Source: a virus (Duplodnaviria > Heunggongvirae > Uroviricota > Caudoviricetes). Taken from it: a DNA stretch of 47,473 nt. The notes below the pieces were generated by a model. It saw only the letters and a list, made by a program, of their open reading frames with translations, did no database searches and was not told where the DNA came from. Shown here piece after piece: positions 2-20,867 of this stretch (within the stretch, counting starts at the first letter, position 1; each line of letters opens with the position of its first letter). The stretch lies in IMG/VR virus record IMGVR_UViG_2585427964_000002; one strand, 5' to 3'. Made by a program: the position numbers and the translations under genes.

Positions 2-1297
2 TTAATTTTTCATTGCTTCGTTATGGGGTATGGTTGGGGCAAACTCGCTTAACTGTGTATTTAACAAAGCTACCTGTGCATTATTGTTTTCAGACATCCA
101 TTTTCCGTATACCTGAAATACCATTTGCGCATCTGCATGGCCCATCTGGTTTGCTATAAATGCCGGGTTAGCACCAGCAGTCAGCGACCAGCAGGCATAA
201 GTATGTCTCGACTGATATGATTTTCGATGGCGGAGTCCGGCACGTTTTATCGCTGCGTCCCACATCTGCCTTATTGAGTCAACGGTAAAATGGTCACCAT
301 AATTTTTTACTCTCGCTGATACTTCAGGTTGAAAAACAAAGGTGCATTTTTGTTTTTCTGTTCTGCCATACTCTCTGAGGTGAACATCAATGATATGCTC
401 TTTGCTCAGTCTCGTTAATGTCATCTGACTCCGGAGAGCGTCGATTGCTGGCTTAATAAGATGAATGACCCGATTGGTTCCCGCCTGTGTTTTTGGTACC
501 GTGAAACGGTCTTTTGCTAAATTTCTCCTGATCATCATTGTTCCATTTTTCAGATCTATGTCCTCCCATCCAAGTGCACACAGCTCACCAGGGCGAACGC
601 CAGTATAAACAGAAACACACCATAAATTTTTGGCTTGCTGATTTCTGCACGCATCGATAAGACGGATGAATTCCTCCCGCGAAAGAGGATCCGGAATGGT
701 TCTTGATTCCTTTAATGGCGAGATCCCCTTAAACGGGTTATCTGCCAGGTAACCGTTATCAACACCAAACTGGAACACGGCGTTAAGATTTGTCATGTAA
801 TTATTTACTGTTACAGCCGATCTCCCTGGTTGTGTAACAATATAGTTACTTTTGGGGATCTGGTATCCAGTCAGTAGCTCTTTACGAACCTCCAGTAATT
901 TTTCTTTATTAATCGATGAGGCAAGATTTTTTTCACCGATTATGCTCAGGATATTTTTGATGACGGCACGGTATGTGTTGAGTGATGTTTTGGCAACTTC
1001 AGTTTCTTTCAGTGCCAGAAATTTTTCAGCCAGTTCTTTTATGGTTAAATCTTGTCGGGCCTCACCAAATTTTTCCAGATTGCGTGAGGAGGGAAACTGT
1101 TTTGCATAGTCGAAAACACCAGTTTTTATTGCGTAACAAACAGAGGCGCGTAGTTCACCTGCAACGCGCCTGTTTTTTGCTGTGTCAGGAACCCCCAGGT
1201 TTTCCCTGACTCTTACGCCTTTATAAACAAACCAGATACGTAATTTCCCTCCATGGTTTTCCACGCCTGTCGGATATTTCATTTCAACTTCTCTCAT
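2..1297 (-). CDS. int: Phage integrase, tyrosine recombinase family
   Basis: 431-aa ORF at the prophage end with xis directly upstream on the same strand. C-terminal region is tyrosine-recombinase-like (HxxR and RHTYACW context). Confidence 0.88.
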   Translation of the reverse strand: MREVEMKYPTGVENHGGKLRIWFVYKGVRVRENLGVPDTAKNRRVAGELRASVCYAIKTGVFDYAKQFPSSRNLEKFGEARQDLTIKELAEKFLALKETEVAKTSLNTYRAVIKNILSIIGEKNLASSINKEKLLEVRKELLTGYQIPKSNYIVTQPGRSAVTVNNYMTNLNAVFQFGVDNGYLADNPFKGISPLKESRTIPDPLSREEFIRLIDACRNQQAKNLWCVSVYTGVRPGELCALGWEDIDLKNGTMMIRRNLAKDRFTVPKTQAGTNRVIHLIKPAIDALRSQMTLTRLSKEHIIDVHLREYGRTEKQKCTFVFQPEVSARVKNYGDHFTVDSIRQMWDAAIKRAGLRHRKSYQSRHTYACWSLTAGANPAFIANQMGHADAQMVFQVYGKWMSENNNAQVALLNTQLSEFAPTIPHNEAMKN

Positions 1298-1316: not shown

Positions 1317-1568
1317 TCAAGTAAGATGACGTCTTGGTCTTGCTGATGCCTGGCGCTCAATCCAGCGATCAATTTCTTCCAGGTTGTAAAAGCATGGACT
1401 GTTATCCCATGGCATACCATCATGAGCGACATGCTTATATTCCCTTCCTTCCATAAACGATTTTTCCCGGGCCTTTTTTAACGTACCTTTTTTTATTCCT
1501 TTCAGCGCAATTAACTGCTCTTCGGATACCCATTTGCCGGGAGAGACAATCATGATTACTTCGCTCAT
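1317..1568 (-). CDS. xis: Excisionase-like protein
   Basis: 83-aa basic ORF immediately upstream of int on the same strand, the canonical xis position. Start could be the internal Met a few codons in. Confidence 0.65.
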   Translation of the reverse strand: MSEVIMIVSPGKWVSEEQLIALKGIKKGTLKKAREKSFMEGREYKHVAHDGMPWDNSPCFYNLEEIDRWIERQASARPRRHLT

Positions 1569-1640: not shown

Positions 1641-4079
1641 TTAAGAATCAGCCTGACTCGGGATCAGTTTTTGCCAGATAACTGAAACGTATTTTGCCTG
1701 GTAACGGGCGTCATCAAGTGCATTATGGCGCTCACCTTCGAATGGAATAGCCGTTCTGGCATCGAAGTCTATGGCTTTCCCCAGCTCAACGATTGTGCGT
1801 ACATCGCGATCGTTGTAGTAACGCCACGGGCAGGGGATCCCCTGCCGTTCGTATGAACGGCGCAAAATCGTGTTGTCGAAGTTGGCTCCATTTCCCCAGA
1901 CCTGAACAAAAAATTCACCGGAGTTTTCGTCGATAAATTCCCGCAATTGTAACAGTGCATCATCTAACGGGATTTCATCGGTCATAATGGCAGATTGCGC
2001 TTCGCGTGATTGCTTAAGCCACCATTTAATGGTGTCCCGATCAATGACTCCGCCAGCAGTTTCCAGATCGATAGTCTTACTAAATTCCGGTCCCATATCT
2101 CCGGTTTGCGGATCGAAAAATATTGCACCTATTGAGATGATCGGGGCATCAGGATTTTTTCCCATGGTTTCAAGGTCGATCATTAGATGGTCACACGTCC
2201 TGCTGGTGGATGTGATTTCGTGATGACCGTTCACATTAATTAAGGGATCTGTCGCCTCGCCAGTTTCATTATCGCTATCGTGATGCTGATTGCCGCCAGG
2301 GTTCTCCTTGTGTGGATGTTCAGCGCCTTCCATTTCCTCCGGATCATTTTCCTGAACTTCAACCTGATTCTCTTCATTGAATGTTTCCTGGTATGTTGCG
2401 TCGCCCATCACCACACCACAATCAGGGCAGTTGCCGCCGCCGGTCTGACCGCAGGCGGTACAGACTTTTTCCGGTTCTTGTTGCTCTTCTGGTTCAGGCT
2501 GTTTCGTTTTTGGCTCGTTTTGTAACGCATTTGAGCTGTTTTGTTCCGCTTTCTGGTCGTTCCGTTCCGATTCTTGCTGGTTCTGGTTCACAGAATCGCG
2601 GGTTTCAATCCCCTTCACCCATTTCGGATCATTCGGGTCGCTAATCCCTGCAACAAATTCACCACGTGATGCAGCAAGCAACTTATCGGCGTCAGGCTGG
2701 TTGATATTGGCTGCCTGCATAATTTTGTTTACTTCGTCAGCGGTGACTTTTACTTGGTTAGCGGAACTCACCTGCGACTGAGCATCCAGCGACTGCGCGT
2801 CCTGGCTATGTTCAGTTGTATCCGGTTCCATTGTTTCAGTTGTTGTCCGTTCACCTGCCATTGCGTCAGATGGTTGTGGTTTTTCTTCTGTTTCACGCTC
2901 AGTAACCACCTCGCGGTTAATTTCTTCCAGGATATCTTTTTCCGGCGTATGCCGGGCAACTGTGAGAGTTTCCTTGCTGGGGTTCTCGTGATCAGTTTCC
3001 GTCAAATAGGCGTTGATATACCCCTGAAGGCGTCCCGGGTAGTGATAAAATTCAGGGTGTGCGTTTCGGATAAGTGCAAAAATAGCGGCGCGGGAATAGT
3101 CCAGAATACCCGGGGTTGCACGAAGTGCTGCGGACCATTCTTTGAACGGACTTTCTTTTTTCAGGACGACTTCTTTTGCGCGACGATAAACGCTGCCCGG
3201 AATTTCATAAATATTAAAATCCATCGGAAGTGTGGCTGCTGCAATCTCCACATCCAGTGTGTCGAGGGTGTGTACTAAATTCGGATTGCGATCGGTTTTG
3301 TTCCCGCCACCGGCATTAGCACCGGAAGCCGTGCGGGTGATACGCGAAACACGATTTCCTTTCATCCACTCTTTTGTTAGCAGACCGCGATCGGTGTAGT
3401 CTGCGTCTAGGTATGCTTCGAAAAAAGCAGTCATCGGCCCCAGGCTTGAATTGCCAGGATTAGGGAAAACTTTGTCAGTATCACGCACCAGTTTGTGGAG
3501 GTCGCGAATCTCCAGCGGGTCGAGCAGGCTGGTTTTGTGGGAAACAGCCAGGGCAGTAACAGCCGGTAGTTCTTCAGCCCGTGCAATGTGTAATGCCTGG
3601 AGTTCGTCGCGTGAAACGTGCGTTACCGGTTTTTTGCTGCCGTGTTGAGCAAGCCAACGAATGGGCAGTTCCTGACCGGAAACAGGCAGAAGCATGCTCT
3701 CCTCAATCTCAGTCATGTCTTCGCCGTTGATGTTGGTATTGTCAGTGCTGGCTGGTTTGTCCTGAACTGAGGGGGAAGGGCCGATAAATGTCATTGTGAT
3801 GCCATCTTTCCCGCCTTTTTCATAGCGGTTGCAGAATTCCGTATCAAACACGCCTTCTGGCGGAAGGTCGTCAACAACGGGCAAATTGACGCGGACGGGT
3901 TTTTTAAAGTCGTCTTCATCATAATCGTTGTCATCCATTGCGGTAATGCAGCGGGAGATTGCAACAGATAATTTTTTTGCTGTAGTCCAGTAAAAACCAC
4001 CTTTAATTCCCAGGCGTTTTCTTACTTTGTCATTTTTTGCTTCGCAATATAGTGCAAATTCTTCTTTATCAGTGCTCAT
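1641..4079 (-). CDS. Exonuclease-family protein: C-terminal DEDDh 3'-5' exonuclease domain, central double-CxxC motif, acidic linker
   Basis: 812-aa ORF. C-terminal motifs [16 protein letters not shown] and HNALDDARY fit Exo I/II/III of DEDDh exonucleases. [16 protein letters not shown] is a zinc-ribbon-like motif. Long D/E/Q-rich low-complexity linker. The N-terminal half resembles RecE-type (exodeoxyribonuclease VIII-like) prophage proteins from memory, not verified. Confidence 0.75.
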
Positions 4080-4169: not shown

Positions 4170-4361
4170 TTAAAATCCTGCCGGGATTTCGTTATTATTC
4201 TGGTAAATAACTTTATCGACCGGATAACAGTTGCCTGGAATTTTCTGTTCGGTTGCTGCTGCCATACATTCCTGCATTGTTCTGTGAACACTGACTGCAA
4301 TATCAACTGGTTCTCCGGAAACAAGAAAAACCGTCAGAATAAGTGCAAATACTGGATTCAT
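4170..4361 (-). CDS. ydfD: YdfD-like small lysis/membrane protein
   Basis: 63-codon ORF from an internal Met of the 81-aa track ORF (MNPVFALILTVFLVSGEP...). Hydrophobic N-terminus. Start overlaps the dicB stop by 4 nt. Matches recalled K-12 YdfD length and position downstream of dicB. Confidence 0.6.
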   Translation of the reverse strand: MNPVFALILTVFLVSGEPVDIAVSVHRTMQECMAAATEQKIPGNCYPVDKVIYQNNNEIPAGF

Positions 4362-4546
4362 TGTGCATATCCTTTTGGCTGCAGACGTAAACGGGCCAGC
4401 ATTGAAACAATGCATACTTTATTTAATAGCTCCCGTTCTTGTTTTCTCTTGTTAATGGCATCTTCAGTAAATACTGGGTTACTGATAGTGACACCAATTT
4501 CAAAACAACCTTCAGACGTATTAACGTTTGGTAATAACGTTTTCAT
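4358..4546 (-). CDS. dicB: Cell division inhibitor DicB
   Basis: 62-codon ORF from an internal Met of the 97-aa track ORF (MKTLLPNVNTSEGCFEIGVTISNPVF...KRKQERELLNK...). Matches recalled DicB sequence and the dicF-dicB-ydfD order. Confidence 0.8.
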   Translation of the reverse strand: MKTLLPNVNTSEGCFEIGVTISNPVFTEDAINKRKQERELLNKVCIVSMLARLRLQPKGYAQ

Positions 4547-4711
4547 TATCGCGTCCTCAACAATGAACTTTGTGATGCAGTGCCTGGTGCCTCCAGGTGA
4601 CGTTAACCAGTTAACAATTAACGCCGGATACAGAGAATCCACCCATAACACTGTTTTTGGTTTTAACTGTTCCGCGTGCGCTCAGCCGCATTCACCGCAT
4701 CACAAAATTCA

Positions 4712-4775
4712 CTTTAAAAAGGGCGCACATCAGCCAGCAATGAAACTGATGCCGCCAAAGGTACCAATCAACATG
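4712..4775 (-). ncRNA. dicF: DicF-like small RNA
   Basis: Minus-strand sequence just upstream of dicB reads ...CTTTGGCGGCATCAGTTTCATTGCTGGCTGATGTGCGCCCTTTTT: conserved TTTGGCGG 5' block, a hairpin and a T-run as in canonical DicF, but the central region differs from the K-12 sequence as recalled. Ends approximate. Confidence 0.5.
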
Positions 4776-5025
4776 GAGTGTTGTGGCAGGGTTGTCACTT
4801 AAGCGTATGGTCAACCTGACAACCCGGTGTCCTCAACGGGGAAGGAATAACCCCGCCATACTTACCGCCGCGCCATTTCGCGGAGTGCCACAACCGGAAG
4901 CGCACGGTCGACGAAAATTTAACGACAGGCTATCTATGAACCAGCTACCTCGCCGTGCGCTTTCGCGTTATGTGCCTGCTTTTAACCACGTCAGGCGAGG
5001 TGGTATCCTTAAAATCACCACAGTT

Positions 5026-5601
5026 TTAAGGATTCATTAAGCAATGTCGCAACCACCAATAAATCCGCTTAAGAACATGAAAATTGATTACTGGTATAAA
5101 GCGCTTACAGTTGTTGGCGCTGCGTTGTTTGTCTTTAATGGAACGTCTTTTTTTGACAGATATCCCGTTGTTCCATTGGGTTTTTTGTCCTCCGGCATCT
5201 TTTTTATTGGTTTGGGGGAGTGGATTAATCACCCTCTCAAAGTGAGATTTATTGGTCCTGGAGTTTGGACTCGTGGATATAATCGTTCTTCGTGCGCACT
5301 CGGTATCATCTTCGACATACTTGGTTGTTTCCTGATTGTTACAGGAGTCGTCAAGTTCTTCTGATGTAAAACCGCAAATGGGGCACGTAACGGGAATTTT
5401 GAAAAGCGTTTCACCGGGTTCCAGAACAAAATTTTCTGCGGTCTGATTTTGCTTCTCATATTTGTGCTCCGCGTCATTGTGAGAGCACATTCTTATTCTG
5501 AGTGCCTGTTTAAACTCACTGAAGCTGAGAGCTTCTTCGCCTTCGGCAAGGCCTTCGAAGTATTCTTCGTAAGCCTTTTTCATGATTGTGTCGAAATCCA
5601 T
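5026..5601 (-). CDS. YdfB/YdfC-like protein (possibly an unsplit ancestral form; 3' extent uncertain)
   Basis: ORF beginning MDFDTIMKKAYEEYFEGLAEGEE... immediately downstream of ydfA in the dicB operon; contains a CPICG motif. The C-terminal 80 or so residues are K/R/N-rich low complexity and may be non-coding read-through. Competes with a plus-strand membrane-like ORF at 5044-5364. Confidence 0.35.
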   Translation of the reverse strand: MDFDTIMKKAYEEYFEGLAEGEEALSFSEFKQALRIRMCSHNDAEHKYEKQNQTAENFVLEPGETLFKIPVTCPICGFTSEELDDSCNNQETTKYVEDDTECARRTIISTSPNSRTNKSHFERVINPLPQTNKKDAGGQKTQWNNGISVKKRRSIKDKQRSANNCKRFIPVINFHVLKRIYWWLRHCLMNP

Positions 5602-5602
5602 A

Positions 5603-5758
5603 TCACTCACCTGAGTTTCTTTCCAGCCAGCGACGGGCACCATTTTCGGTTTTAAACGTTTTGCTTTTGGTATATGTCATCGCGGTGAACGTGCCGTCCT
5701 GGTTGGGAAACACGCCGTACACCAGATATTCGTTGTTGCCAAGATCGATAGTATCCAT
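5603..5758 (-). CDS. ydfA: YdfA-like protein (DUF1391-type)
   Basis: 51-codon ORF from an internal Met (MDTIDLGNNEYLVYGVFPNQDGTFTAMTYTKSKTFKTENGARRWLERNSGE), first gene after dicA in the dicB operon. Matches recalled YdfA. Confidence 0.7.
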   Translation of the reverse strand: MDTIDLGNNEYLVYGVFPNQDGTFTAMTYTKSKTFKTENGARRWLERNSGE

Positions 5759-5950
5759 GCTGACCTCATTTCCCCTTAACGCCGGGGTAGCGGAACTGTT
5801 TGCTGAGAACACCGTGCGGTGTCTTGATGGAGGTAATTTAGTTTTCTCATTATTTTTCGTCAAGGTTTTTTGATGAGAAAACTCAAGTATTGGCGCAAGA
5901 TAAAGCCAATACATTGAAATGTAAGGCTTTAAAATTTTGTGAAGGGATGA

Positions 5951-8921: not shown

Positions 8922-9953
8922 ATGTATATTACTTCCAAACTGCGGCGTATCGCGTTACGCTACTCAAGATTATTCCAACATGAGTCCTCCTATATGGCAC
9001 GAAAATTAATAATATTCGGCAACGGTCTTGGTATGGCTTTAGATCCTGCTCATTTTTCCTTAGACAGGGCGTTGGCAGAAATTTGGCATCGATCCAATTT
9101 CTTAAACGATGTCCATAAGCAACTTATCGAACGTTGTCTTCAGCGGCAAGGTCCACCGGCAGGGGAACATGAGTTGGATACCCTTCACCAAGCTATCACA
9201 TATTGTAAGGCTCTTGCGCAAATTGGAGAAGGAAACGAGCATTGGCTTACTGACGATGGACTAAACTTCCCCGAAATCACCGCCACTTATATCCACAAAG
9301 TTGCAACTAGTTTGCATAATTACGGTGAAGGGTTGCCGCAAAGATTCGAAAATGCGCTAGTGGAATTTGTAAAAAATACACGCACTCATATTGCGACATT
9401 AAACTATGACAAATTATTATACAACTCATTCATAGATAATGATATATTCAGCGGGTATGATGGGTATCTGGTTGATGGGATGTTAGGCCACGGATTTTCC
9501 GCCGAAGCGCTCGAACGGAAATATAATCGTAGGTTTGGTTATTATTTGCATTTGCATGGCTCACCACTATTTGTTAATCAGGGTGAGACCGTCTTAAAAC
9601 TTTCACGTTCTCAACTTACGGTTGACAGGGATGAGCCTAGCGAACATATAGTGTTAACGCATATAAAAAGGAAACCGTCAGTTATAGCAGCATCTAATGT
9701 TCTTTCTACGTACTGGGATTATTTGCAGTTTGCATTATTTGAATCAGAAGAAATAATACTGTTTGGTTATTCTGGCCTCGATGAACACCTTAACCTGCTT
9801 ATTCGGCCTTACCTAACCTCTAAGCATTTAAGAGTAATTGAGTGGAGCGGTGCAGGTGAACAAAATGACCGTGAGGCATACTGGCAATATTTGTTAGGAC
9901 GGGAAGTTACTGTAACCAGGTTGGATAACATCACTGACTTCATCAATTGGTAG
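8922..9953 (+). CDS. SIR2-like (SIR2_2/DHS-like NAD-binding fold) protein, candidate NADase defence effector
   Basis: Ordered motifs of the defence-associated SIR2 family: Rossmann strand plus glycine loop KLIIFGNGLGMAL, catalytic-Asn motif ATLNYDKLLY, catalytic-His motif YLHLHGSPLF, and ILFGYSGLDEH. Alternative start at ATG 8994; neither start has a strong Shine-Dalgarno. Visibly AT-rich relative to flanking phage genes. Confidence 0.6.
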   Translation: MYITSKLRRIALRYSRLFQHESSYMARKLIIFGNGLGMALDPAHFSLDRALAEIWHRSNFLNDVHKQLIERCLQRQGPPAGEHELDTLHQAITYCKALAQIGEGNEHWLTDDGLNFPEITATYIHKVATSLHNYGEGLPQRFENALVEFVKNTRTHIATLNYDKLLYNSFIDNDIFSGYDGYLVDGMLGHGFSAEALERKYNRRFGYYLHLHGSPLFVNQGETVLKLSRSQLTVDRDEPSEHIVLTHIKRKPSVIAASNVLSTYWDYLQFALFESEEIILFGYSGLDEHLNLLIRPYLTSKHLRVIEWSGAGEQNDREAYWQYLLGREVTVTRLDNITDFINW

Positions 9954-10231: not shown

Positions 10232-10413
10232 GTAAAATTGCTGCGGGTGCTTGAGGCTATCTGCCTCGGGCATGAACACCAACGGCAGATAGAGAAAAGC
10301 CCCAGTTAACATTACGCGTCCTGCAAGACGCTTAACATTAATCTGAGGCCAATTTCATGCTAGACACATGTAGGTTAGCCTCTTACGTGCCGAAAGGCAA
10401 GGAGAAGCAGGCT

Positions 10414-10569
10414 ATGAAGCAGCAAAAGGCGATGTTAATCGCCCTGATCGTCATCTGTTTAACCGTCATAGTGACGGCACTGGTAACGAGGAAAGACCTC
10501 TGCGAGGTACGAATCCGAACCGGCCAGACGGAGGTCGCTGTCTTCACAGCTTACGAACCTGAGGAGTAA
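10414..10569 (+). CDS. hokD: Hok/Gef-family membrane toxin HokD (RelF)
   Basis: 51-codon ORF MKQQKAMLIALIVICLTVIVTALVTRKDLCEVRIRTGQTEVAVFTAYEPEE matching recalled HokD. An in-frame upstream extension (track ORF from 10357, 70 aa) is mok-like. Confidence 0.85.
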   Translation: MKQQKAMLIALIVICLTVIVTALVTRKDLCEVRIRTGQTEVAVFTAYEPEE

Positions 10570-12445: not shown

Positions 12446-12820
12446 ATGCTCATAGATTTGGTTTTACCTTACCCGCCGACGGTGAACACTTACTGGCGAC
12501 GCCGTGGCAGCACATATTTTATCTCGGAGGAGGGAAAGCGTTATCGCCGGGCTGTGGCGCTTATTGTTCGCCAGCAGCGGCTGAAATTAAGCCTGTCCGG
12601 AAGGCTGGCGATAAAGGTGATTGCAGAGCCACCGGATAAGCGTCGTCGCGACCTGGACAATATCCTGAAAGCACCGCTGGATGCGCTGACGCATGCGGGA
12701 GTGTTAATGGACGATGAGCAGTTTGATGAAATCAATATCGTTCGTGGTCAGCCAGTATCTGGTGGACGTATGGGGGTGAAGATTTACCCCATAATGCATG
12801 AAGAGCAGGTCAAAAAATGA
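12446..12820 (+). CDS. rusA: Holliday junction resolvase RusA
   Basis: 124 aa with the RusA signature region ...DKRRRDLDNILKAPLDALT... and typical size and position upstream of Q. Confidence 0.85.
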   Translation: MLIDLVLPYPPTVNTYWRRRGSTYFISEEGKRYRRAVALIVRQQRLKLSLSGRLAIKVIAEPPDKRRRDLDNILKAPLDALTHAGVLMDDEQFDEINIVRGQPVSGGRMGVKIYPIMHEEQVKK

Positions 12821-13638
12821 AACTGGAAGATTTACCGAAATACTACTCCCCAAAATCCCCTTGCCTGACCGATGCATCGGCTTCAACGTCAAAAGATGCG
12901 CTGAGTATCACTGATGTGATGGCCGCGCAGGGCATGACACAGAATCGGGCTGAGATGGGGTTTTCTGCGTTCCTGGGGAAAATGGGCATCAGTATGAATG
13001 ACAGGGCACGGGCAACAGAATTACTGGCAGATTATGCACTCAGTCGGTGCGATCGTGTGGCGGCGTTGAGAAAACTTCCGGCAGAAATAAAACCGGTAGT
13101 GATGCGCATTATGGCTTCGTACGCTTTTGAGGATTATGCCCGCAGCGCAGCGAGTAAAAAGCAGTGCCCTTGTTGCTATGGGGAAAAATTTATTGAAAGC
13201 GTAGTTTTTACAAACAAGGTCCAGTATCCGGATGGTAAGCCGCCGGTATGGGCAAAGTGTACGAAAGGTGTGTATCCGTCTTACTGGGAAGAATGGAAAA
13301 AAGTCAGGGAGGTGGTAAAAGTTGCCTGTCCGGAGTGTGGCGGAAAGGGTGAGGTTTCCACCGCCTGTAAGGATTGCCGTGGGCGTGGTGTCGCCATTCA
13401 CCGTGAAGAGTCGGTAAAACGTGGTATGCCTGTTATCAGAGACTGCCAGCGTTGTGGTGGTCGTGGCTATGAAAGACTACCATCAACGGAGGCATTTAAT
13501 GCTATATGCGAGGTGACAAACCAGATAACACGCGCGTCATGGGAAAAAACAGTTAAGAAATTCTATGATGCGCTGGTGACCCGGTTTGATATTGAAGAAG
13601 CATGGGCTGAGCGGCAGTTAAAAAAGGTAACTAGGTAA
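12817..13638 (+). CDS. Q: Late-gene antitermination protein Q
   Basis: 273-aa ORF overlapping the rusA stop, with several CxxC zinc-binding pairs, at the position preceding the late promoter, tRNAs and lysis genes. Confidence 0.75.
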   Translation: MKLEDLPKYYSPKSPCLTDASASTSKDALSITDVMAAQGMTQNRAEMGFSAFLGKMGISMNDRARATELLADYALSRCDRVAALRKLPAEIKPVVMRIMASYAFEDYARSAASKKQCPCCYGEKFIESVVFTNKVQYPDGKPPVWAKCTKGVYPSYWEEWKKVREVVKVACPECGGKGEVSTACKDCRGRGVAIHREESVKRGMPVIRDCQRCGGRGYERLPSTEAFNAICEVTNQITRASWEKTVKKFYDALVTRFDIEEAWAERQLKKVTR

Positions 13639-13781: not shown

Positions 13782-13857
13782 GGCCCTTTAGCTCAGTGGT
13801 GAGAGCGAGCGACTCATAATCGCCAGGTCGCTGGTTCAAATCCAGCAAGGGCCACCA
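13782..13857 (+). tRNA. tRNA with CAU anticodon (Ile2/Met type, ileX/ileZ-like)
   Basis: 76-nt cloverleaf GGCCCTTTAGCTCAGTGGTGAGAGCGAGCGACTCATAATCGCCAGGTCGCTGGTTCAAATCCAGCAAGGGCCACCA; anticodon loop CTCATAA; encoded CCA end. Confidence 0.85.
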
Positions 13858-19365: not shown

Positions 19366-20271
19366 CTATATTTCCAGACATCTGTTATCACTTAACCCAT
19401 TACAAGCCCGCTGCCGCAGATATTCCCGTGGCGAGCGGTAACCCAGCGCACTATGCGGATGCCATTCGTTATAATGCTCGAACGCCTCTGCAAGGTTCTT
19501 TGCTGCCGTTAACCCGTCTGGTTTGGGCATGATACTGATGTAGTCACGCTTTATCGTTTTCACGAAGCTCTCTGCTATTCCGTTACTCTCCGGACTCCGC
19601 ACCGCCGTGTTCTTCGGTTCAAGTCCCAACATCCGGGCGAACTGGCGTGTTTCATTAGCCCGGTAGCATGAACCATTATCCGTCAGCCACTCCACTGGAG
19701 ACGACGGAAGATCGTTGCCGAAGCGGCGTTCCACCGCTCCCAGCATGACGTCCTGTACTGTTTCACTGTTGAAGCCGCCGGTAGTGACCGCCCAGTGCAG
19801 TGCCTCACGATCACAGCAGTCCAGCGCGAACGTGACACGCAGTCTCTCTCCGTTATCACAGCAGAACTCGAACCCGTCAGAGCACCATCGCTGATTGCTT
19901 TCTTTCACGGCCACTCTGCCTGTATGTGCCCGTTTCGATGGCGGTACAGCAGGTTTTCGCTCAAGCAACAGCGCATTCTGGCGCATGATCCGGTAAACAC
20001 GTTTGGCATTGATCGCAGGCATACCATCAAGTTCTGCCTGTCTGCGAAGCAGCGCCCATACCCGACGATAACCATACGTTGGCAGCTCTCCGATAACATG
20101 GTGTATACGGAGAAGCACATCCGTATCATCAGTGTGACGACTGCGGCGGCCATCCATCCAGTCATCGGTTCGTCTGAGAATGACGTGCAACTGCGCACGC
20201 GACACCCGGAGACAACGGCTGACTAAGCTTACTCCCCATCCCCGGGCAATAAGGGCGCGTGCGCTATCCAC
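19366..20271 (-). CDS. insD: IS2 transposase OrfB (InsD)
   Basis: 301-aa ORF with DDE transposase region, inside the IS2 boundaries. Confidence 0.9.
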
Positions 20272-20594
20272 TTTTTTGCCCGTCCATATTCAACGGCTTC
20301 TTTGAGGAGTTCATTTTCCATCGTTTTCTTGCCGAGCAGGCGCTGGAGTTCTTTAATCTGCTTCATGGCGGCAGCAAGTTCAGAGGCAGGAACAACCTGT
20401 TCTCCGGCGGCGACAGCAGTAAGACTTCCTTCCTGGTATTGCTTACGCCAGAGAAATAACTGGCTGGCTGCTACACCATGTTGCCGGGCAACGAGGGAGA
20501 CCGTCATCCCCGGTTCAAAGCTCTGCTGAACAATTGCGATCTTTTCCTGTGTGGTACGCCGTCTGCGTTTCTCCGGCCCTAAGACATCAATCAT
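20229..20594 (-). CDS. insC: IS2 OrfA (InsC), HTH protein
   Basis: 121-codon ORF starting [33 protein letters not shown]...; ATG at IS2 position 92 from the left end. Confidence 0.9.
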
Positions 20595-20867
20595 CTGTTC
20601 TCCAATGACTAGTCTAAAAACTAGTATTAAGACTATCACTTATTTAAGTGATATTGGTTGTCTGGAGATTCAGGGGGCCAGTCTATAAATCTCGATTGTC
20701 GATGGTATTGGTTGTGTGACAATACCTAGTCTTTCCGGTATGCCTGAAGAGAATACAAACGACAGATTATGTAAGGGAAACGCGCTGAAACTTTCACTCT
20801 TTCATGCTGAGTGATTTGACGTTATATTTTTAGCCGCAAGTGAAGAGCAAACGAATGGAGCGACAAA

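Follow-up and report, generated by a model that had tools for sequence, protein, structure and literature searches.

The gene and its domain layout

The IMG/VR virus record IMGVR_UViG_2585427964_000002, a 47,473-nucleotide stretch of Caudoviricetes DNA (the window), carries near its left end an intact minus-strand open reading frame (ORF) coding for 812 amino acids (aa), as reported in a preliminary description made from the letters of the DNA without database searches. We find that it belongs to the early-left (pL-type) operon of a Qin-like lambdoid prophage and is modular in build: a RecE-type scaffold is kept, a DexA-type DEDDh effector replaces the 5′-3′ PD-(D/E)xK exonuclease of RecE, and recT is absent. 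The ATG start is preceded at 7 nt by a GAGG Shine-Dalgarno sequence, PHROGs 607, 2082 and 20376 cover the gene, and a 100%-identical copy in Escherichia coli SCU-113 (WP_032163991.1) bears the PGAP name "exonuclease". The two-domain architecture PF06630 plus PF16473 is already precomputed in public data. The gene is laid out as follows:

1641-4079, minus strand: whole gene, RecE-scaffold/DEDDh exonuclease fusion, 812 aa, ATG start (ORF list; Pfam, NCBIfam and PHROGs matches; identical annotated copy)
3774-4079, minus strand: scaffold domain 1, aa 1-102, alpha/beta, holding the start of the PF06630 match (AlphaFold block-mean pLDDT 87-98; dN/dS 0.14-0.15)
3330-3722, minus strand: scaffold domain 2, aa 120-250, helical, the most RecE-like stretch (pLDDT ~80-97; near-identical blocks with Rac RecE; dN/dS 0.15-0.21)
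2886-3296, minus strand: scaffold domain 3, aa 262-398, helical (pLDDT ~69-97; alignments with RecE and the phage Tritos protein)
2238-2885, minus strand: acidic, largely disordered linker region, aa 399-614 (composition; pLDDT below 50 at aa 399-440)
1641-2189, minus strand: DexA-type DEDDh exonuclease domain, aa 631-812 plus stop codon (PF16473, DexA alignment, AlphaFold, Foldseek)

A RecE-type head and linker

The N-terminal part had been called RecE-like, and the resemblance is borne out and reaches into the central part of the protein. In a BLASTP comparison with the K-12-type RecE of the Rac prophage (locus L002), aa 58-614 match RecE residues 50-591 at 59% identity, with long near-identical blocks that include the ISDPNDPKW stretch and the zinc knuckle, and Pfam places PF06630 (Exonuc_VIII) at aa 57-189 (E 3.8e-36). 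Over its first ~57 residues the protein departs from K-12 RecE, and nothing aligns past RecE residue 591. The NCBIfam exoVIII equivalog PRK09709 aligns aa 1-614 with model positions 1-602 of 877; because the match is confined to these positions, it scores 932 bits, below the cutoff of 1269. RecE itself carries the PD-(D/E)xK domain PF12684 at residues 615-850 (E 4e-28; PDB 3H4R), which a Pfam scan did not find in the window protein, where a DEDDh domain of opposite polarity stands instead. As the similarity stops at RecE residue 591 (aa 614 of the window protein) and PF12684 begins at RecE residue 615, the swap point corresponds to the start of the RecE nuclease domain, which a 2023 review places at residues 564-866 and whose N-terminal neighbor, two-thirds of RecE, the same review describes as "of unknown function" (PMC11611040).

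The acidic low-complexity linker of the preliminary description is visible in the composition, with 13 D/E in aa 361-400 and 11 in aa 561-600 (per 40 residues). The cysteine motif is also present as a CxxC pair, though its spacing had been misread: it is CxxC-x7-CxxC, as in RecE, and not x9 (C540xxC543-x7-C551xxC554, nt 2418-2462). This zinc knuckle occurs in 7 of 50 scaffold representatives and is therefore optional. The linker region also contains the conserved ISDPNDPKW stretch, and its segment aa 443-614 is common to RecE, intact YdfE and the window gene. Domain 3 is weakly shared with intact YdfE (~aa 270-360) and is the best conserved part of the scaffold relative to a distant homolog in locus L019 (pN 0.20).

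An AlphaFold model of the scaffold, built on a 44-sequence alignment, consists of three confident domains (mostly above 90 pLDDT) with disordered segments between them, their relative placement being uncertain (pTM 0.40). A profile search of PDB sequences with the scaffold returned low-complexity matches and a weak match to the RecE nuclease through tails only.

A DexA-type DEDDh tail

The C-terminal domain belongs to PF16473 (Rv2179c-like), which spans aa 631-802 (E 2.7e-67, 226.3 bits where the cutoff is 27, with positions 2-177 of the 177-position model matched). Both domain families sought in the preliminary description, PF16473 and PF06630, were thus matched, the latter together with an alignment to RecE; there is no match to PF12684 in the tail, which is not the PD-(D/E)xK nuclease of RecE. 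The DEDDh motifs read earlier from the letters are complete: DLETMG (635-640), NGANFDN (730-736) and HNALDDARY (785-793) supply the catalytic set D635, E637, D735, H785 and D790, which aligns to D7, E9, D119, H186 and D191 of T4 DexA. Among 208 homologs, D735, H785 and D790 (Exo II and Exo III) are near-invariant.

T4 DexA, itself a PF16473 member (79.9 bits), was the sole PDB sequence match of the window protein (8KEL/8KEN, E 1.8e-6). An AlphaFold model of residues 615-812 (pLDDT 85.9, pTM 0.83) had 8KEL as its best Foldseek match (E 5e-11, TM 0.71), with RNase T, DnaQ domains and Orn/REXO2 ranking next and a probability of 1.00 for DexA, RNase T, the DnaQ domain, Orn and REXO2 (RNase H-like alpha/beta fold). 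The tail is a DEDDh fold as judged from motifs and model, and 3′-5′ exonuclease activity is predicted for it. One stand-alone relative, P0039 (180 aa, 28 member sequences), reads NGANFNN instead of NGANFDN; without the catalytic aspartate of Exo II, this variant may be inactive.

A sister mosaic of ydfE

The preliminary description had also suggested that the window gene is the intact form of the ydfE fragment of K-12 Qin. It was right that ydfE lies in the same slot and is disrupted there, by IS2, but the identification does not stand: the alignment with K-12 YdfE yielded no similarity (best BLASTP E 4.6), and Pfam scans found PF06630 neither in the K-12 ydfE fragment nor in intact YdfE proteins. 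Residues 1-256 of TRITO_27, an 823-aa protein of phage Tritos, are 99% identical to K-12 ydfE; TRITO_27 is an intact YdfE that is also found in many E. coli genomes. Its gene follows dicB-ydfD and precedes xis-int, as does the window gene, and the last ~370 residues of its product (linker, knuckle and DEDDh domain) are ~97-100% identical to those of the window protein. Elsewhere the two proteins share weak similarity over ~aa 270-440, and residues 1 to ~260 are unrelated, the window head being RecE-type. We therefore rejected the window gene as the intact form of K-12 ydfE, which is the head of another, 823-aa mosaic; with a shared linker and tail and different heads, the window gene and intact ydfE are sister mosaics.

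The 631-aa protein P0373 joins a YdfE-like region to a PD-(D/E)xK tail, so that the two heads (RecE-type and YdfE-type) and the two tails (DEDDh and PD-(D/E)xK) combine in all four ways. The sequence H33 is a truncated pseudogene and not a RecE-type head on a PD-(D/E)xK tail. Newer Pfam holds YdfE-specific families, PF27430 and PF27432 "YdfE_C" (precomputed matches on P0054, P0069, P0083 and P0247), which means that curators are starting to split the YdfE-type protein into domains.

Neighborhood and absence of an annealase

The early-left genes stand in the order cI-like gene, ydfA, a ydfB-fusion ORF, dicB, DUF1482/ydfD, exonuclease, xis and int. The ORF list and the Pfam matches of the neighbors thus confirm the early-left operon position given earlier. 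The genes flanking the exonuclease are:

4170-4651, minus strand: dicB (within 4358-4651) and DUF1482/ydfD (within 4170-4415) (Pfam PF05358 DicB, PF07358 DUF1482)
1317-1568, minus strand: xis, excisionase (ORF list; excisionase-family label in the identical copy), in the slot where Rac-type phages have recT
2-1297, minus strand: tyrosine integrase, last gene of the early-left transcription unit (ORF list; annotation of the identical copy)

A gap of 73 nt separates the exonuclease stop codon from xis. The statement that no recT or bet-like gene lies between the exonuclease and xis/int is accordingly correct, and among the early-region ORFs scanned with Pfam and PHROGs (including Cro-like, YdaT-like, O-like, DUF977, SIR2-like, HNH/DUF968, RusA and Q) none matched an annealase family, on which ground a hidden annealase was rejected for the ORFs checked. 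The early-left operon of Rac resembles that of the window in placing recE upstream of xis/int, but its order is recE-recT-ralR-rcbA-xisR-intR (L002), and neither recT, ralR nor rcbA lies downstream of the window gene.

The same order recurs in other prophages. DEDDh-tailed genes are immediately followed by xis/Exc and int in the window and in L001, L004, L005, L006, L026 and L027, six loci that also share the upstream dicB-ydfD order, and more distant DEDDh-tailed relatives keep the synteny at 47% (L019/L020) and 39% identity (L021). No recT follows the DEDDh-tailed gene in any of the 10 loci examined. In each of the three loci studied that have a PD-(D/E)xK-tailed scaffold gene (L002, L022 and L023), by contrast, a RecT gene (PF03837) comes next. 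Tail type co-varies with the presence of an annealase. Stand-alone 189-aa tails occupy the last slot before xis in Salmonella and E. coli lambdoid prophages.

A simple consensus scan found no promoter-like site on the minus strand between ydfD and the exonuclease gene. PADLOC has no model that matches the exonuclease gene, and we rejected its membership in a catalogued defence system.

Several other features of the window were noted. K-12 Qin and phage Tritos have the dicF small RNA just upstream of dicB; an Rfam search did not find it in the dicB operon of the window. Within 4651-5950 (minus strand) lies instead a 205-aa ORF (5026-5643; phrog_35040, unknown function) whose N-terminus overlaps a partial ydfB annotated by PGAP in the identical SCU-113 copy. 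On the plus strand, a 343-aa ORF at 8922-9953 sits between DUF977 and hok/sok; it matches the SIR2-like family PF13289 (E 7.5e-6) and, weakly, the PADLOC entries Aga_SIR2 and PDC-S21. As the SCU-113 prophage, which is otherwise similar, has an "ATP-dependent nuclease" there, this looks like a variable position for defence cargo. The hok/sok-type toxin-antitoxin locus (10245-10569, plus strand) comprises a sok RNA at 10245-10419 (Rfam RF01794, 115 bits) and an overlapping HokD-like 70-aa ORF at 10357-10569. A tRNA gene (13782-13854, plus strand) lies just 3′ of the Q antiterminator gene (12817-13638), and two overlapping transposase ORFs (19366-20639, minus strand; PHROGs 157/151) mark an insertion-sequence insertion between the lysis and packaging regions.

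Prevalence, diversity and selection

Among 5426 complete E. coli genomes, 1266 contain the full-length gene (at least 80% coverage), 4069 contain the 550-bp tail (up to 7 copies each, mostly at 99% identity or more), and 1736 contain the K-12-type RecE nuclease tail. Phage records carry the gene too, including phage Tritos and vB_Eco isolates. The best 120 matches of a search for N-terminal homologs were all near-identical E. coli fragments, and diversity was taken from a HMMER search run exhaustively against 1.84 billion representatives (50% clustering), which gave 295 matches at E of 1e-30 or lower. Tail classes were assigned with module probes to the representatives of at least 400 aa among the best 150 of these 295 matches: 18 joined the scaffold to a DEDDh tail, 18 to a PD-(D/E)xK tail and 10 to one of three further tail types; one was a recE-recT fusion, and 11 had no recognized tail or were incomplete. 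Pfam confirmed PF06630+PF16473 and PF06630+PF12684 on examples. Judging by these sequences, the DEDDh form represents a diverse lineage rather than a recent accident. The architecture is old, diverse and very common, which the preliminary description had understated.

Two of the other tails deserve mention. In L024 (5001-7996, P0257), and also in P0337, the RecE-type scaffold bears a different tail of ~250 aa belonging to no Pfam family, and the next gene in L024 is Sipho_Gp157 (PF05565), not recT. The PHROGs label of this tail type (tailA) is "exonuclease" only, given by association; it may be another end-processing or annealing module. P0244, P0264, P0269, P0349, P0356 and P0384 end in a short conserved tail (~45 aa, QGLCANPA) that holds no nuclease domain, and these six representatives indicate that the scaffold also exists without a recognizable catalytic tail.

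Selection was measured as the ratio of nonsynonymous to synonymous substitution (dN/dS) against the intact copy in L026, which is 91% identical:

Whole gene: 0.22
Domain 1 (aa 1-102): 0.14
Domain 2 (aa 120-250): 0.15
Domain 3 (aa 262-398): 0.21
Linker (aa 443-614): 0.31
DEDDh tail (aa 631-812): 0.09

Purifying selection thus acts on every module, with values between 0.09 and 0.31, and overall values against diverged intact copies were 0.22-0.34. At synonymous sites the head has diverged from L026 by 0.73 and the tail by 0.026; the two parts therefore have different histories. DNA homology to recE extends over gene nt 339-1841, and the ydfE-type gene is homologous over nt 1328-2439. These breakpoints, at gene nt ~1328 and ~1841, make the linker (aa 443-614) the zone in which crossovers likely exchanged both heads and tails. 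In L009 (737-3127), three adjoining ORFs of 456, 157 and 183 aa take the place of one long exonuclease gene, so that some "stand-alone" exonucleases in databases that start MIDLETMG are fragments of broken long genes and not genuine short forms.

Comparison with characterized DEDDh exonucleases

Besides the shared family, fold and catalytic residues, the window tail and T4 DexA differ in several respects. They are ~26% identical, and DexA contains additional loops and helices. A virulent phage encodes DexA, a stand-alone protein of 227 aa, whereas the window tail comes from a temperate phage and is joined to a scaffold of 630 residues. DexA residue W152 corresponds to Y755, in a column that across the family holds Y (66), W (57), C (19) or T (19). 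D169 corresponds to A769, with D771 two residues further on, an equivalence that is uncertain at this level of identity. Of the DexA tetramer contacts, S87 is replaced by P704 and D90 is kept as D707 (a one-residue shift would give A708). In T4, DexA is a 3′-5′ DNA exonuclease that scavenges host DNA and takes part in end processing and double-strand-break repair during intron homing (PMC12153337).

An E. coli DexA homolog with the DEDDh residues kept, EcD ("HREX", GenBank HAK9828821.1; Kang et al., NAR 2025), is reported to cleave DNA containing 5-hydroxymethylcytosine (5hmC) and not unmodified double-stranded DNA, and to degrade T4 DNA; leaky expression from a plasmid suffices for T4 resistance (PMC12153337). 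It is presented as a bacterial defence gene in an article whose main text uses the word "prophage" 0 times and describes no RecE-type fusions (PMC12153337). Stand-alone relatives of the window tail (180-190 aa) exist too and lie in prophages beside xis/int. EcD, however, is a stand-alone protein that starts M-I-D-T-E-T; no protein with this start was present among the 385 fetched proteins, and the EcD cloning primers have no match in the window or in the loci fetched. We rejected identity of the window gene with EcD on the primer mismatch; the two are set apart by primers and start rather than by alignment. TONDO/ISG20-like exonucleases, also borne by prophages and plasmids, likewise combine DEDDh domains with variable N-terminal auxiliary domains, but they form another DEDDh subgroup of ISG20 homologs below 500 aa that act on the 3′ UTRs of RNA phages (PMC13344964). 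We dropped this group as a home for the window gene, since nothing in that report indicates that it includes the window family.

Proposed function

We favor, with moderate confidence, the reading that the window gene encodes a 3′-to-5′ exonuclease that is expressed upon induction and acts, independently of an annealase, on the 3′ ends of linear DNA during lytic development. From the gene order, and as no promoter of its own was found, the gene would be co-transcribed with dicB, ydfD, xis and int on induction or infection. Given its catalytic pentad and fold, the tail would attack free 3′ ends of DNA as a two-metal-ion 3′-to-5′ exonuclease and, as in DexA and RNase T, would probably form a dimer. 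Its role might be to trim or degrade the 3′ ends of linear DNA, paralleling the roles of DexA, and not to serve RecT-dependent recombination; with no dedicated annealase in the syntenic loci, the protein is not part of a RecET- or Red-type two-component recombinase. The mosaic patterns show the RecE scaffold to be a shared platform on which alternative end-processing tails are exchanged by recombination in the conserved linker.

Several points weigh against this proposal. The literature searched holds no activity, substrate or expression data for the window protein or any scaffold-DEDDh fusion. PF16473 is named after the exoribonuclease Rv2179c, so that an RNA substrate would be compatible with the family assignment. 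A 3′-5′ exonuclease destroys the 3′ tails used in RecA- or annealase-mediated recombination, and a pro-recombination role is thus not self-evident. The scaffold found no Foldseek neighbor better than E 0.2 in PDB or BFVD. The synteny sample is small, with many of the 10 DEDDh loci closely related and three PD-(D/E)xK loci. The 18:18 ratio of tails is biased toward DEDDh, being drawn from the best 150 matches to a DEDDh-bearing query. Finally, the promoter scan was a crude consensus match, and expression in the lysogen is still compatible with it.

A broader version, which we advance tentatively and think rather unlikely, is that the N-terminal ~600 residues of RecE are a general delivery platform for interchangeable DNA-end effectors, and that the DEDDh version constitutes a second, annealase-independent pathway. 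The effectors may include PD-(D/E)xK with RecT, the DexA-type 3′-5′ exonuclease and at least three further tails, and the pathway may be a new way for phages to recombine or join ends by means of 5′ overhangs, or else a nuclease that is coupled to induction and directed against competing phage or host DNA.

The relationship to EcD invites the explanation that the gene is an HREX-type superinfection-exclusion nuclease, with a tail that would degrade the hydroxymethylcytosine DNA of incoming T-even phages and spare host DNA, and that the prophage would keep to protect its host. EcD is reported to cleave 5hmC DNA and to confer T4 resistance (PMC12153337), the window tail is in DexA's Pfam family with DexA as its closest solved structure, and prophages bring the tail into 75% of the complete E. 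coli genomes, in many cases as multiple copies of at least 99% identity, which fits a selectively favored cargo. Nevertheless, we consider this unlikely and do not file the window gene under HREX, because EcD is a different, stand-alone gene whose primers are absent from the window and the fetched loci, because W152 and D169, the DexA residues assigned to 5hmC recognition, are not kept (the W152 position being variable in the family), and because the gene stands last but one in an early-left operon under repressor control. In such a position, without a promoter-like site of its own, it should be silent in the lysogen; no PADLOC model matches it either. An RNA exonuclease that trims the 3′ ends of phage or host transcripts or of RNA-phage genomes, as in the namesake Rv2179c or the TONDO proteins, the variable N-terminal part being auxiliary, seems very improbable to us. 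PF16473 is annotated as a 3′-5′ exoribonuclease family, the structural neighbors after DexA are RNase T, oligoribonuclease and REXO2, and, as a 2026 preprint shows, MS2 and Qbeta are blocked by DEDDh exonucleases that prophages and plasmids encode and that carry a variety of auxiliary domains (PMC13344964). Yet the nearest characterized relative, DexA, acts on DNA, as does EcD, the tail replaces a DNA exonuclease on a DNA-recombination scaffold, and the TONDO proteins, as ISG20 homologs of less than 500 aa, show no sign of including the window family.

A substitute for RecET could also be envisaged, in which the scaffold brings ends together and the exonuclease exposes 5′ tails that anneal spontaneously or with host factors. 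In its favor, E. coli in-vivo cloning relies on the 3′-5′ exonuclease XthA without a phage annealase. Scaffold, genomic slot and operon position are the same as those of RecE, the prophage keeps a RusA resolvase, DexA 3′-5′ activity helps double-strand-break repair in T4 intron homing (PMC12153337), and full-length RecE, not the nuclease domain alone, boosts linear-linear recombination according to the passage of a review that cites Fu et al. 2012 (PMC11611040). However, none of the 10 DEDDh loci contains an annealase partner, and the stand-alone tails in the same slot imply that the scaffold is dispensable for the basic role of the tail. Moreover, removal of 3′ tails is generally anti-recombinogenic in E. 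coli, as in the sbcB/ExoI precedent, and we judge annealase-independent recombination or end-joining decidedly unlikely. Nor can the gene well be a non-functional recombination scar in a decaying prophage. Related regions do decay, as seen in ydfE cut by IS2, the truncated pseudogene H33 and the L009 gene in three ORFs, but at least 1266 complete genomes contain intact ORFs, each module has a dN/dS within 0.09-0.31, the catalytic residues are near-invariant, and the same architecture and synteny persist at 39-47% identity in other lineages and also in phage records.

Implications for RecE and for DexA-family genes

The literature searched contains no description of a RecE-scaffold/DEDDh fusion, of intact YdfE or of the link between tail type and recT. 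The gene is common, already catalogued and probably functional. As the scaffold is under purifying selection without the RecE nuclease and RecT, it has a role of its own that is independent of RecT-type recombination. RecE is a workhorse of recombineering, and the natural series of tail swaps (PD-(D/E)xK, DEDDh and others) is a genetic tool for the scaffold's role; if the RecE N-terminal region is indeed a general platform, tail-swap alleles would separate scaffold function from the RecE nuclease genetically for the first time. Many phage records label such genes "exodeoxyribonuclease VIII", a name that implies the wrong polarity and the wrong pathway. The E. coli and Salmonella DexA-family members examined occupy the last early-left slot of lambdoid prophages, which alters the framing of the claim that EcD is a defence gene.

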